Shown here: positions 7,720-20,270 of the stretch, piece after piece
Position numbering within the stretch: position 1 is the first letter of the stretch
How the letters are laid out: every line of letters starts with the position of its first letter
Virus record (IMG/VR): IMGVR_UViG_2703718839_000004
Location: 1 to 20,958 of that record
Source of the DNA: a virus
Taxonomy: Duplodnaviria; Heunggongvirae; Uroviricota; Caudoviricetes
Direction: 5' to 3' (one strand)
DNA: 20,958 bases
Position numbers and translations under genes: made by a program
Notes under the pieces: generated by a model
The model's database searches: none
Told to the model about the DNA's origin: nothing
What the model saw: the letters and a program-made list of their open reading frames with translations, nothing else

Positions 7720-7938
7720 ATGATGATTTGCCCACTGTGTGGAAGTGCCGCCCATACTCGCAGCAGTTTTCAGGTATCTTCATTGACCAAAGAGCGTTAC
7801 AACCAGTGCCAGAACATTAACTGCAGCCATACTTTTGTTACCCATGAAACTTTTGTTCGTTCGATTGCAACGCCAAAAGAGTCAAATCCGGTTCAGCCGC
7901 ATCCAATGAAATCAGGACAGGTGGCGCTCTCTCTTTGA
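7720..7938 (+). CDS. ogr: Ogr/Delta-family zinc-finger late transcription activator
   Basis: 72-aa product MMICPLCGSAAHTRSS...ERYNQCQNINCSHTF with the CxxC...CxxxxC zinc motif of P2 Ogr; GGAGA SD 9 nt upstream of the ATG at 7720. The longer ORF from 7687 was rejected. Confidence 0.85.
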   Translation: MMICPLCGSAAHTRSSFQVSSLTKERYNQCQNINCSHTFVTHETFVRSIATPKESNPVQPHPMKSGQVALSL

Positions 7939-8295
7939 CGCTGCCGCCATTTTGTCGCCATCGTTAAAAAACAGTGCTTCTAACATCATGATTTTAAAAG
8001 GCATAAATTTCAGGCAACAAAAAACCCATTTTTTTTGCATGATGTGACCACGCTCAACTTCAATCCTTCTGATGTCAGCTTTATCGGTATTACACTGCGC
8101 CAATGCAGACAACAAGGCGACATTCAGATCTAAGCTCGAGCCCCACGTAAAATGATCAGGTAAATCAGGCTGAGGGGTTTCAGCCGTCAGGCTGGCTGGT
8201 AACGGAACTACCGGAACCTGGACGTAAACTGTTCGCGTACTTCCGCAACCGGTCAGCAGCGGCAGCAGGCACAGGACGTGAAGCACAATCATCAT
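7912..8295 (-). CDS. Rz1-like o-spanin (outer-membrane lipoprotein), +1 frame, starting inside Rz and running past it
   Basis: MMIVLHVLCLLPLLTGCGSTRT carries a lipobox (LTGC) followed by a Pro-rich segment PVVPLPASLTAETPQPDLP; start 8295 lies inside the Rz gene. The 3' extent is uncertain: the last ~40 codons run through AT-rich sequence and overlap ogr convergently by 27 bp. Confidence 0.55.
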   Translation of the reverse strand: MMIVLHVLCLLPLLTGCGSTRTVYVQVPVVPLPASLTAETPQPDLPDHFTWGSSLDLNVALLSALAQCNTDKADIRRIEVERGHIMQKKWVFCCLKFMPFKIMMLEALFFNDGDKMAAASKRERHLS

Positions 8296-8572
8296 CCGCA
8301 ACAGCCACTTTGATATCTTCCTGGGTTCTCTGTGACTCCAGTGCGATCTGCTGTTTTGCATGTTGATTCGCCTCCTGAATGATGTTCGTTATTGCCATAG
8401 TACGCAGAACATTCGCGGTGATAGCCTCAGTAGAATCAGCTCGCTGTTCCGCAGCATCAGCACGCTTCTGCTCCTCCAGAAACTTTCCATGATAGTGATT
8501 CGCTGACCAGACAAGACCACCAGCGACACAAGCAATAAACGTTAAAATGAGCGCCCAATAACTCATCTTCAT
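8180..8572 (-). CDS. Rz-like i-spanin
   Basis: 130 aa with an N-terminal TM helix (YWALILTFIACVAGGLVW) and a charged coiled-coil-like periplasmic part; start overlaps the endolysin stop (ATGA); contains the embedded lipoprotein ORF. Confidence 0.7.
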   Translation of the reverse strand: MKMSYWALILTFIACVAGGLVWSANHYHGKFLEEQKRADAAEQRADSTEAITANVLRTMAITNIIQEANQHAKQQIALESQRTQEDIKVAVADDDCASRPVPAAAADRLRKYANSLRPGSGSSVTSQPDG

Positions 8573-9183
8573 ACCAGCAGCGCCGACCGCGCCTTGTTGT
8601 ATCGGACCTTACGATCCTCAATACCGTTCAAACCGCCGTTAATGATGCGCGTAACACGGTTAATATCGGCACCGTAGATCATGCAACCTTTAGAGGTGTA
8701 GAACCATGCAGCTGAGCGCGCAGCCTGTAGTTCCTGTTCCAGTTGTTCAGGTGAAGTCACCAGATCTAACTTCAGCGCCGCGCCACAGATGCGATAATTA
8801 TGGAGGCCAGTGATTTGAATTAATCCTCTACCACGATATTTCCAGCCATCACCTGGTGCTTTGTTACCCAGTCGGTTGCTATACACCAGATTGGCAATAG
8901 CATCCTGACGAGCTGCATGTCCGGATGTTCTGCCAAGGGCATCAGCCTGCTGCTGTGTGATCCTCTTTCCGAACGTCGCCACCAGCGCAGATGGTGTGTA
9001 GTTAAAATTTTCAACTACGGCGCTAAACCCCATCGACTCATGGCCTACCTGAGCGATAAACATTGCCTGATCCGCTGGTGCTGTAATGCCGAATTCCTTC
9101 ATCGCCGCATCAATGTGCGGAAACCAGCGCGCAGCCAGCCCGGCGCTAATACCAGCCGCCTTTTGAAATAATTGTTGGTTCAT
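8569..9183 (-). CDS. Endolysin, glycoside hydrolase family 19 (chitinase-like lysozyme)
   Basis: 204-aa protein with GH19-type motifs (AMFIAQVGHESMGF, YRGRGLIQITGLHNY) as I recognise them; start overlaps the upstream membrane-protein stop (TAATG). Confidence 0.85.
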   Translation of the reverse strand: MNQQLFQKAAGISAGLAARWFPHIDAAMKEFGITAPADQAMFIAQVGHESMGFSAVVENFNYTPSALVATFGKRITQQQADALGRTSGHAARQDAIANLVYSNRLGNKAPGDGWKYRGRGLIQITGLHNYRICGAALKLDLVTSPEQLEQELQAARSAAWFYTSKGCMIYGADINRVTRIINGGLNGIEDRKVRYNKARSALLV

Positions 9184-9464
9184 TAGTGCCTCAGATGATC
9201 AACCAGACGTGCAACGTTGCCTCTGACGGCCACCAGCACGGAAAGAAAAATAGTGTTCGCCACGATAATGGGCCATGAGGAATGAGGATAAATCCCACAG
9301 AGATAGGCCAACGGAACAGCACTGTATGTAACAGTAATCAGCCAGGCTAAACGTGAAACCCAAGGACGATGCCGCGAATCACCACGACGATAAAACATCA
9401 GAGTAATAACAACACAAGCACATAACAGCGCATTTATAGTTGCTGTCGGGTCATTTAGCTCCAC
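9183..9464 (-). CDS. Small three-TM membrane protein of the lysis cassette (holin or antiholin-like)
   Basis: 93 aa, three predicted hydrophobic helices; translationally coupled to the endolysin (TAATG) and overlapping the upstream membrane-protein gene. Confidence 0.5.
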   Translation of the reverse strand: MELNDPTATINALLCACVVITLMFYRRGDSRHRPWVSRLAWLITVTYSAVPLAYLCGIYPHSSWPIIVANTIFLSVLVAVRGNVARLVDHLRH

Positions 9465-18194: not shown

Positions 18195-18198
18195 ATAC

Positions 18199-18231
18199 TT
18201 GACAATGTACCTTTGAGATACATAATGTACC
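18199..18231 (+). promoter_or_regulatory. pL-like promoter with an embedded operator-like site
   Basis: TTGACA (18199-18204) -16/17 nt- CATAAT (18221-18226); the spacer carries TGTACC-tttga-GATACA plus a second TGTACC (18226-18231), the same half-site and spacing as the operators between the repressor and cro genes. Confidence 0.55.
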
Positions 18232-18927
18232 CAAAAGAAACATGAAGCAGGCAAGATTCAAACAAAATTTGGTTGTAACACGGCGTATGGCACATGCGTC
18301 GTTAGCGGTCTGGAGACGTTAAAGGGGACAATCCACTCCTTGCTCGGGCAAACAAACCAGGTAGCCGGAATGTGCAAGTCAATGAGGATGCTGATAAGAC
18401 GCCTAACCAGCGTGGCGATTCGGTTTGACGCCTGGGAAGAGACCAGGGTGCAACGATGAGGGCATTTATGGAACCGCGACAAAGTGTGGTGCCGTAACTG
18501 GCTAAGTGCTCTCTGCGTTGTGGTAATCCGCGAAATGGCGCGGCGGTAAGTATGGCGGGGTTACTCTTTCCCCGTTGAGGACACCGGGTTGTCAGGTTGA
18601 CCATACGCCTGAGTGACAACCCCACCACAACTGCCATTGCTTTGGCGGTACCAGTTTTTTCCTTAGTCCTTTCTGGCACCGCCCTTTTTACAAAACAGAG
18701 AAGAGCATCACCGGACGATGGGCTCATAACCCAATCCATCCGGCAGTGACTACCGCAGGTGTTCTTCTCTGTTTTGTGGAGAAACTAACCGCCCCTGCAG
18801 AGGTGCTCTGGCTGATGCCCGCCCTCAGGCAAAATATGTTTCTGCTATCTGGCAGAGGTTTATTCCGACAAGATGCACTGAAATTTGATATTACTGCCCG
18901 TGTGCAGCGGGCTAAGTGGAGAAACAT

Positions 18928-19134
18928 ATGCTGAACCTCGATTGTGTTCCTATCTCAACTTATTGCAAAGAAACTGGCGAAACTACTGAAGCTATAAACA
19001 AACGTGTACAGCGCGGTGTTTGGCGTGAAGGCGTTCAGGTTTTAAAGGTTGAAGGCGTTAAGGAGAGGTGGATTGATCTTAGTGAGGTTGCAAAATGGGC
19101 CAGACAAAACTGCTCAAACTACCGCGCGGCGTAA
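18928..19134 (+). CDS. xis: Excisionase / AlpA-like small DNA-binding protein
   Basis: 68 aa from the ATG at 18928 (GGAG SD 7 nt upstream); immediately upstream of and overlapping the integrase gene; small basic protein. Confidence 0.55.
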   Translation: MLNLDCVPISTYCKETGETTEAINKRVQRGVWREGVQVLKVEGVKERWIDLSEVAKWARQNCSNYRAA

Positions 19135-20270
19135 CAATCAGGAAACACCGCCAGGACGAAACGATCAATATAACTTTCACCTACAAAGGAGTTAAATGCC
19201 GTGAGCCTCTTTCCAATCTGGAAGTAACACCAAAGAACATTAAATACGCTGAGCGTACACTCGGCGAAATTCATAATAAGATCGAAAGGGGAACATTCAT
19301 TTATGCGGAATATTTTCCCCGTTCTGCTCGTTTGAAAATTTTTGGTAATGCTGCCGCAGGCAAAACGGTAAAAATGTATCTGGACGAATATCTTGAAATC
19401 TGCGAAACGAGAAAACTTTCTCCCTCTACGATTGGTGGTTATAAAAAATGCCGTAGTGCGTTAGCCTCACTTCACATTTGTCCTGCAAGTGAATTAACAC
19501 CAGCAATCCTGAAAGCGTGGATTCAAAATCAGAAAACGACCTTAAAAACAATTCGCAACCAGTTATCTTTCCTGCGGTCAGCACTTGATGAAGCCGTAAC
19601 CGATGGGGTACTTCAAATTAACCCCGTATCGTTAGTAACTGCTTCACGCTACCAAAGTGATAAGTCAGAAGCAGAAAGCAACTACGTGGTTGATCCGCTA
19701 TCACCAGCAGAAGTTGATGCATTACTAGCAGCTGCTGGAAATAAACAATGGGAGAATCTGTTCCGGTTCGCCATACATACAGGCCTGCGTAGTTCTGAAT
19801 TATGTGCCCTTAGATGGCGTGATATCGACTTTGTTGGAAAAACTGCCCATGTCCAGAGCGCAAGTGTTGTCGGTGTTATCAAAGGAACAAAGACAAAAGC
19901 CGGTACTCGTAAAGTTGAACTGACAGAAGAGGCAATGTTGGCGCTGATAAATCAGAAGCCATTTACATTCATGAAGGATGCTACTGTCTTTGAAGATCCA
20001 AAGACAAACAAACCGTGGGCCAGCGCCGATGCGATAAGGAAAAAAGCGTGGATACCAACCTTACGTAAAGCAGGTATCCGGTACCGTAACCCATATCAGA
20101 CCAGGCATACTTTCGCCACCAGCCATATCAGCCGTGGTGCGAACCTGTTCTGGCTTGCAGGCCAGATGGGCCATAAGGGACCAGAAATGCTATTTCGTCA
20201 CTATGGCAGTTACCTTGCTGCATATGACGGACATACCGCTAAAAATACTAATGATACAAAACAGGCATGA
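19095..20270 (+). CDS. int: Tyrosine integrase (lambda-family, with N-terminal arm-binding domain)
   Basis: 391 aa; C-terminal catalytic region with RHTFATSHISRGANLFWLAGQMGH...LFRHYGSY (Arg, His-x-x-Arg and Tyr motifs). Confidence 0.9.
   Translation: MGQTKLLKLPRGVTIRKHRQDETINITFTYKGVKCREPLSNLEVTPKNIKYAERTLGEIHNKIERGTFIYAEYFPRSARLKIFGNAAAGKTVKMYLDEYLEICETRKLSPSTIGGYKKCRSALASLHICPASELTPAILKAWIQNQKTTLKTIRNQLSFLRSALDEAVTDGVLQINPVSLVTASRYQSDKSEAESNYVVDPLSPAEVDALLAAAGNKQWENLFRFAIHTGLRSSELCALRWRDIDFVGKTAHVQSASVVGVIKGTKTKAGTRKVELTEEAMLALINQKPFTFMKDATVFEDPKTNKPWASADAIRKKAWIPTLRKAGIRYRNPYQTRHTFATSHISRGANLFWLAGQMGHKGPEMLFRHYGSYLAAYDGHTAKNTNDTKQA

Follow-up and report, generated by a model that had tools for sequence, protein, structure and literature searches.

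A lambdoid prophage module lacking morphogenesis genes in a draft contig is probably the early half of an SfV-like prophage interrupted by a P2-like prophage

Based on similarity searches, profile-based annotation and comparison with related prophages, a nested arrangement of two prophages was proposed for the 20,958-nt IMG/VR record IMGVR_UViG_2703718839_000004 (hereafter the window, meaning the whole stretch of DNA that was analysed). In this arrangement, a secondary site within an SfV-like prophage was probably used by a P2-like phage for integration, and the morphogenesis genes of the SfV-like prophage would lie beyond the P2-like attL (probability of about 0.78, judged from the sequence). 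The initial annotation had described bases 7912-20270 as a compact lambdoid element encoding integration, immunity, replication, late regulation and lysis, and had suggested that it could be a decayed prophage, part of a hybrid phage or a satellite-like element. The genes that it named, which are those for the integrase, the excisionase, CI and Cro, a CII-like regulator, an iteron-bearing initiator, Q and the lysis proteins, are present according to Pfam, PHROGs and NCBIfam. It is also correct that the window is without terminase, portal, capsid or lambdoid tail genes and that the sole structural genes nearby are oppositely oriented P2-like tail genes. The window contains no tRNA gene. The window is the entire draft contig LOOC01000040.1 (20,958 bp; assembly GCA_001575295.1, a short-read draft), and the lack of morphogenesis genes in it therefore tells nothing about the genome.

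Similarity searches divide the window cleanly into two unrelated prophage pieces, one P2-like and one lambdoid. Bases 1-8029 are the right end of a P2-like prophage that is usually found between rcdA and ybjL, and they are 95-99.8% identical to Escherichia coli P2-like prophages, with bases 1-7904 being 94.9% identical to Peduoviridae records (Klebsiella). The lambdoid bases 8027-20939 share 95-98% identity with phage SfV and with hundreds of E. coli prophages, in their early and lysis regions; within these bases, bases 8027-20206 match many E. coli prophages at 96-98%, bases 8168-18804 match SfV (NC_003444) at 95.8% in four aligned pieces, and bases 10584-18804 match Stx2c phages at 95.6%. 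Both blocks together occur in none of 50,697 phage records, the best of which cover 38-39% each, and in no complete E. coli genome. The lambdoid genes assigned to the annotated element thus stand, but its boundaries do not, as lambdoid DNA runs from 8027 to at least 20939 and bases 7912-8026 are P2-like.

The module is not a compact element of its own; it corresponds to the ordinary early half of full-size SfV-like prophages, to which it is 95-98% identical. In the E. coli strains GF66.1, CP55 and EC43, the spanin genes are followed in the same direction by genes for an HNH protein, a small terminase subunit of the P27 family (terS), terL, a portal protein, an HK97-type protease and the major capsid protein, and connector and sheath-type tail genes come next in the loci of GF66.1 and EC43, the only ones that extend further. 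All three relatives examined accordingly carry the module joined without a break to approximately 20 kb of its own morphogenesis genes. The closest complete relative is EC43, in which the rare 182-aa cargo gene likewise lies between Q and the holin genes; in the integrase region the identity to the window is 94.6% for GF66.1 and 98.5% for CP55. On the contig, no HNH, terminase, HK97-type head or sheath-type tail genes stand directly after the spanins, and a P2-like attR follows lysC. Three features meet at this point.

8003-8029, no strand: phage-type att core of 27 nt, ATAAATTTCAGGCAACAAAAAACCCAT, an attR-like junction (compared with the empty rcdA|ybjL site and with attL/attR)
7912-8295, minus strand: o-spanin LysC/Rz1, the native 89 codons of which occupy 8029-8295 (Pfam LysC; PHROG 456, Rz-like spanin)
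7720-7938, plus strand: late activator of the ogr/Delta type, with which the genes of the P2-like prophage end (Pfam Ogr_Delta)

The att core was defined by comparing the empty rcdA|ybjL site (locus L014) with attL and attR of strain ACN002 (L015). From variant positions in the core, the crossover can be assigned to the 14 nt on its right-hand side; the identity between attP and attB stops at ...CCCAT. At 8003-8029, the core has the same sequence as in attR of ACN002, and both the P arm and the core are of the rcdA|ybjL type, as in the P2-like prophages at that site. The P2-like relatives match the window through 8028/8029 and the SfV-like relatives match it from 8027; the switch to SfV-like DNA falls exactly at the outer edge of the att core, where the attP/attB identity ends, and a reconstructed attP and the SfV-like target have CATTT in common across the switch, as judged by eye. 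Such a breakpoint, located at the very nucleotide where this identity ends, fits integrase-mediated recombination, and by our own rough estimate a random breakpoint within approximately 35 kb would land at the att edge about once in 10,000 cases.

The junction also coincides with the stop codon of lysC, which is changed from TGA to TGG at 8026-8028 (...CAA AAA AAA TGA in relatives, ...AAA TGG in the window). The TGA codon was read by hand from the flank of the GF66.1 locus (L001) and agrees with the end of lysC in EC43, and translations were compared with the CP55 locus (L013). Because the stop codon is lost, lysC reads through the P2-like bases 7912-8026 and ends at 7912, its product gains 38 residues from antisense P2-like DNA, and the last 27 nt of the gene are shared with the 3' end of the convergent ogr. 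The PHROG 456 profile covers only residues 1-87 of the resulting 127-aa protein, and this extension may impair spanin function.

Both ends of the contig are assembly breaks and consist of repeats.

1-27, no strand: 27-nt crossover site on the right of the invertible tail-fibre segment in the P2-like prophage, at the left contig end
20940-20958, no strand: left terminal inverted repeat of an IS3-family insertion sequence, at the right contig end

Two relatives (L012 and L007) carry the match to bases 1-27 as one arm of a 27-nt inverted repeat (398-424 / 2282-2308), and base 1 of the window aligns to L012:2282, precisely the start of that arm. The assembly probably broke at the left end owing to mixed orientations of the segment in the sequenced culture. 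The crossover site adjoins a Hin/Gin/Cin-type invertase gene, and the P2-like prophage has an invertible tail-fibre segment (window 1-649). At the right end, bases 20940-20958 match, at 18/19 positions, a sequence that in the CP55 locus precedes the IS3 transposase gene by 65 nt, and homology to relatives ends at 20939. Since the last 19 nt are the left inverted repeat of IS3, an IS3-family element is inserted in the accessory gene beyond int.

In the proposed mechanism, a LexA-like self-cleaving CI and a divergent Cro would form the switch of the SfV-like prophage, and its rightward operon would comprise the CII-like regulator, a module of C4/IsrK RNA and Ash, an iteron-binding initiator, Dam, RusA, a KilA-N protein, an HNH protein and Q. 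The late genes of lambdoid phages form one Q-antiterminated transcript. Here, Q may antiterminate at tR', and the transcript could cover the cargo gene and then the genes for the holins, endolysin and spanins; where relatives are intact, it would extend into those for HNH, terminase, head and Mu-like tail proteins. A circular P2-like (Peduoviridae) genome, the normal site of which is rcdA-ybjL, may then have entered through recombination by its integrase of attP with a weak secondary site at the lysC stop. The product would be a P2-like insert of approximately 30-35 kb, convergent and situated between the lysis cassette and the morphogenesis genes, of which the contig shows only attR. The HNH, terminase, head and tail genes of the SfV-like prophage, together with attL, would lie approximately 30-35 kb leftward on other contigs; the presence and state of this distal half are what we infer. 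The P2-like int, C/cox switch, A replication gene and Q-P-O-N-M-L capsid and terminase genes belong to the left of the invertible segment, outside the contig. In the predicted reciprocal attL, the SfV-like side downstream of lysC (...GTTAACATCAT) would be joined to the P2-like int arm (TTATGTAAACGGG...), and this junction would resemble the EC43 sequence ...CAAGGAACAAAACAAAGTTAACATCAT followed by TTATGTAAACGGGTTAATG... and a P2-like int gene.

With a convergent insert of approximately 33 kb between the lysis and terminase genes, the morphogenesis genes would be cut off from pR'. The composite would also be far too large for an SfV-type head, which holds a genome of approximately 37 kb, and the outer SfV-like prophage is therefore probably grounded unless the inner P2-like prophage excises first.

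Several observations weigh against integration at a secondary site. Neither the reciprocal attL nor any SfV-like structural gene is on the contig. The target is weak: at the lysC stop, 10/27 positions match the attP-type core in register, a value that is equalled or exceeded by 13% of positions in a related prophage, and over 21 nt around the crossover 11/21 positions match, which is roughly the top 1%. A strong pseudo-att site at lysC was considered and rejected, the in-register similarity to the core being unremarkable. When the integrases of lambda and P2 act at secondary sites, the break on the phage side falls within the usual crossover region, and the target has only patchy resemblance to the core; compared with these classical sites, the target similarity here is at the low end. 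The junction, moreover, is a one-off with no independent replicate. The attR junction has no match in 5,426 complete E. coli genomes, the GTDB species representatives or the JGI metagenomes, the P2-like junction is in none of the 1,297 complete genomes that match the lambdoid region, the junction-specific LysC protein is on record from this one contig only, and the predicted reciprocal attL has no match in the GTDB species representatives. Finally, an integrase-mediated inversion between a resident attR and the lysC site would yield the same junction sequence.

Such a rearrangement, in which the P2-like attR at rcdA|ybjL recombined with a distant lysC stop, through the integrase or illegitimately, and a large inversion joined the morphogenesis half to the ybjL flank, is considered unlikely. 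Its junction would be identical to the one observed, and the P arm and core are indeed of the ybjL type. The nearest relatives by integrase region, GF66.1 and CP55, are located in the ypjA/gabD region, which is far from ybjL on the K-12 map; the inversion would then have been very large and would have crossed the terminus, which is less parsimonious than recombination of attP with a secondary site. A deletion between the same points is excluded because the span holds essential genes. Quite unlikely, too, is a true remnant, that is, an SfV-like prophage that lost its morphogenesis genes before or afterwards and persists as a fixed defective prophage beside the P2-like one. Wear of the kind that this would entail is seen in the IS3 end that cuts the accessory gene beyond int, in the cI-xis genes (2.5-3.5 kb) reduced to a fragment, in the absent PerC-like gene and in the lost lysC stop codon. 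However, the regulatory, replication, Q and lysis open reading frames (ORFs) all have their full length and share 95-98% identity with the counterparts in functional SfV and in intact prophages, and the breakpoint is the edge of the P2-like att core, as insertion predicts and unlike a random deletion. Of the origins offered in the initial annotation, a decayed lambdoid prophage comes closest, as wear is present; the cause differs, since the missing half would be accounted for by insertion of another prophage and truncation of the contig instead of loss of structural genes.

A self-contained 12.4-kb module that borrows a P2-like virion, as a helper-dependent satellite or as a lambdoid/P2 hybrid phage, is extremely improbable. 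It would suit the small apparent size, the module's own int, xis, replicon and lysis genes and the adjoining P2-like tail genes, and satellites embedded in the late regions of helper prophages are known (PMC10111431). Against a satellite, the ORFs screened in 8027-20939 include no hallmark gene (no primase-helicase, AlpA, Sid/Psu/Delta-type, capsid-redirection or small terminase gene in Pfam, PHROGs and NCBIfam), and the replication gene encodes an O-like/DnaD-like initiator common to SfV. The left boundary is a P2-like attR, with no att of the module's own on the lysis side. The same module runs into its own terminase, portal and capsid genes in three relatives, and the P2-like junction is found in 0/1,297 matching complete genomes. 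A search for the P2 cos sequence GGCGAGGCGGGGAAAGCAC gave no match at up to 3 mismatches, the query being the cos of P2, from which the cos of this P2-like phage may differ. A hybrid phage is disfavoured by the convergent blocks, by the P2-like block ending with ogr and a complete attR-type core that stands between the two, and by the lack of any phage record that spans both (0/50,697). Equally hard to credit is an assembly chimera of two unrelated prophage ends. The genome is a short-read draft and the junction is unique among the public genomes searched; nevertheless, only 3-5 nt are common to both sides at the join, far below any assembler k-mer, which makes misassembly unlikely, a chimeric join would not be expected exactly at the att core boundary, and the contig is on record in 2 samples.

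The lambdoid part, from 8027 to 20939, contains the following features in addition to lysC.

8180-8572, minus strand: i-spanin Rz (Rz-like; Pfam, PHROGs)
8569-9183, minus strand: GH19 endolysin (Pfam, PHROGs)
9183-9464, minus strand: holin, Phage_holin_3_7 (Pfam, PHROGs)
9451-9837, minus strand: holin, Phage_holin_8 (Pfam, PHROGs)
9986-10534, minus strand: low-GC orphan cargo gene, flanked by tR' and the holins, for a 182-aa product with a hydrophobic stretch at the N-terminus
10552-10571, minus strand: tR'-like intrinsic terminator hairpin, approximately 100 nt downstream of Q (terminator scan)
10674-11426, minus strand: Q antiterminator (Pfam Antiterm, E 9e-53)
11440-12435, minus strand: Nin-like region, DUF968/HNH protein (Pfam, PHROGs)
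12437-13279, minus strand: Nin-like region, KilA-N protein (Pfam, PHROGs)
13266-13655, minus strand: Nin-like region, RusA (Pfam, PHROGs)
13652-13978, minus strand: Nin-like region, protein with a LexA DNA-binding domain (Pfam, PHROGs)
13975-14673, minus strand: Nin-like region, Dam methyltransferase (Pfam, PHROGs, PADLOC MTase_II)
14723-15541, minus strand: replication initiator with an O-like HTH_36 N-terminus and a DnaD-like C-terminus (PHROG 270, E 3e-88; Pfam HTH_36)
15538-15774, minus strand: ORF of 78 aa
15767-16603, minus strand: Ash-family ORF (Pfam Phage_ASH)
16055-16142, minus strand: C4 antisense RNA (Rfam, 82.8 bits, above the gathering score)
16167-16243, minus strand: isrK Hfq-binding RNA (Rfam, 63.7 bits, above the gathering score)
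16600-17151, minus strand: YmfL/CII-like regulator (Pfam Phage_CP76; NCBIfam YmfL)
17195-17395, minus strand: cro-like gene (weak Pfam hit to YdaS)
17392-17428, no strand: 14-nt inverted repeat (I2) in the divergent cI/cro control region
17486-18160, plus strand: CI repressor of the S24/LexA type (Pfam Peptidase_S24, E 1.5e-26)
18161-18915, no strand: shrunken cI-xis region with one gene fragment remaining (collinearity with L001 and L013 breaks at 18253 and 18877)
18916-19134, plus strand: excisionase (PHROG 2917, E 1e-44)
19095-20270, plus strand: tyrosine integrase (Pfam Arm-DNA-bind_2, Phage_integrase)
20566-20814 and to 20939, plus strand: accessory genes distal to int, namely an ORF of 82 aa and a second ORF interrupted by IS3 after its first 122 nt

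As in SfV-like prophages, an S24-type CI gene is divergent from cro, a CII-like regulator is present, Q lies upstream of the lysis cassette, and int and xis stand at the end distal to the late genes. The lysis cassette (8180-9837) is 98% identical to that of GF66.1, and the immunity switch (17195-18160) matches PHROG 35. The statement that almost all of these genes are translationally coupled was too strong, since overlaps are found at about 9 of 16 gene junctions, and at the rest the genes are 7-148 nt apart. Within the replication initiator gene, approximately five iteron-like repeats of 21-24 nt at 15172-15276 (repeat family D1) could plausibly be iterons. The C4 and isrK RNAs are found side by side within the 5' part of the long Ash ORF (15767-16603), and the true Ash gene is for this reason probably shorter. 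A P1/P4-style RNA immunity module thus appears to precede Ash in a lambdoid early operon, at the position of SfV orf37, termed the immunity region.

The early gene order is the same as that of SfV. Genes common to both are cI, cro, orf36 (YmfL/CII-like), orf37 (Ash/immunity region), orf38, orf39 (replication protein), dam, orf42, the RusA gene, orf44, orf45, Q and Rz/Rz1, and the E. coli relatives of the SfV-like and e14 (ymf) type additionally share the holins, the GH19 endolysin and the int-xis type. In contrast, SfV has a different integrase, another holin and endolysin, and a methyltransferase gene as cargo where the window has the 182-aa orphan; after Rz1, SfV has an HNH endonuclease gene at the end of its record, whereas the P2-like attR takes that place here. 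SfV orf28-33, the cI-xis genes, are missing from the window. This interval holds 2.5-3.5 kb of genes in SfV and E. coli relatives (SfV orf28-33, yfdP/Q/R-like) and is only approximately 750 bp here, including a 145-aa ORF of which only 27 residues match PHROG 3651. The PerC-like gene (SfV orf40, yfdN) is likewise absent between the replication gene and dam (approximately 14643-14722). The IS3 insertion, the loss of cI-xis genes and the lost lysC stop codon are real signs of wear in the SfV-like part.

The 182-aa cargo gene, with a GC content of approximately 38%, lies after Q/tR' and before the holins, where cargo is classically carried. Searches of Pfam, PHROGs, PADLOC and NCBIfam gave no match for it, nor did tblastn against the 50,697 phage records; its assignment as a defence gene was rejected, as none of the four profile collections supports it. 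Its DNA is found in only 2 of the 5,426 complete E. coli genomes (EC43 and MINF_2E), and a longer 196-aa reading of the ORF occurs in two 1-kb Logan contigs. Beyond int, bases 20200-20939 are 99.5-99.9% identical to the top-listed of 17 matching E. coli genomes, and CP55, the one genome examined for this, has counterparts of both accessory ORFs between int and the next island. For the 82-aa ORF, a role as a defence gene has no PADLOC, NCBIfam or Pfam support, and the only match is a PHROG family of unknown function. The space between an SfV-like int and the next island holds defence-type cargo that differs among relatives: an ATP/GTP-binding protein and a RloB family protein in GF66.1 (L001 26288-28239), and DarT with a NADAR antitoxin in EC43 (L020 28897-30213). 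The window has the 82-aa ORF and the IS3-cut ORF there instead.

The P2-like part, from 1 to 8029, contains the following genes in addition to ogr, the Pfam hits on the tail genes being precomputed.

77-649, plus strand: DNA invertase, a Hin/Gin/Cin-type resolvase (PHROG 125, DNA invertase, E 2e-101; Pfam Resolvase)
792-1964, plus strand: sheath protein FI (Pfam Phage_sheath_1)
1974-2489, plus strand: tube protein FII (Pfam Phage_tube)
2544-2980, plus strand: E/E' (Pfam Phage_TAC_7, Phage_P2_GpE)
2973-6050, plus strand: tape measure protein T (Pfam PhageMin_Tail)
6047-6532, plus strand: U (Pfam Phage_P2_GpU)
6529-7629, plus strand: D (Pfam Phage_GPD)

The late tail block FI-FII-E/E'-T-U-D followed by ogr is that of P2-like (Peduoviridae) prophages, and the ORF lengths (390, 171, 100, 39, 1025, 161, 366 and 72 aa) are the same as in relatives. 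The tail block (792-7629) is 95-96% identical to E. coli prophages and 94.9% identical to Klebsiella Peduoviridae records, and bases 7501-8029 match, at 98-99.8% identity, the end of the rcdA|ybjL prophage that carries ogr and attR. The exact ogr protein is recorded in 71,578 blocks of the collection, and the next gene is ybjL in 10/10 places shown. The prophage at rcdA|ybjL has the invertase, FI, FII, E/E', T, U, D, ogr, the P arm and the 27-nt core in common with the window at 95-99.8% identity, but in that prophage the core is followed by the ybjL terminator region, and in the window by lysC of another prophage.

The P2-like prophage at rcdA|ybjL, often decayed, is found in approximately 1,110 of the 5,426 complete E. 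coli genomes, BL21(DE3) among them. Internal deletions are common in it (loci L015 27686-40851 and L003): in ACN002 (L015), what is left of the portal gene lies directly against a piece of the tape measure gene. Additional cargo is present in some copies, for example a gene for a TIR-domain protein in ACN002. In the tape measure gene (1025 aa), approximately 430 nt (3073-3503) have no megablast alignment to the relative L007, and the tape measure of another relative (L004) has 875 aa, which indicates that its length and sequence vary among these P2-like prophages.

Nested mobile elements in the late regions of prophages have been documented for helper-embedded phage-inducible chromosomal islands (PICIs) (Tommasini, Mageeney and Williams 2023, PMC10111431). 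These are likewise integrative elements inside a lambdoid-type late region that part the late genes from their promoter until excision (PMC10111431). The inner element of the window would, in contrast, be a full-size temperate phage and not a satellite, and its site is one-off, weak and secondary, whereas helper-embedded PICIs have a dedicated recurrent att site that a specialised integrase clade uses (PMC10111431). Nothing in the window indicates a helper relationship of that kind. It is very unlikely that the insertion constitutes a working nested configuration like that of helper-embedded PICIs, in which SfV-like morphogenesis would be held back until excision and Q-antiterminated transcription that starts at pR' of the SfV-like prophage would enter ogr and the P2-like tail operon in the antisense direction, so that the induction programmes of both phages were linked.

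The lambdoid element is a member of a well-known phage family, and its biology is ordinary, with the nested prophage a minor curiosity. On the favoured reading of a P2-like insertion in an SfV-like prophage, a prophage can look headless as an artefact when a draft contig breaks at repeats and one prophage is nested in another, and such prophages should not be scored as satellites or as novel minimal elements without the rest of the assembly. The same reading would mean that a P2-like phage can land in a weak secondary site in the late operon of another prophage, here exactly at the stop codon of the o-spanin gene.

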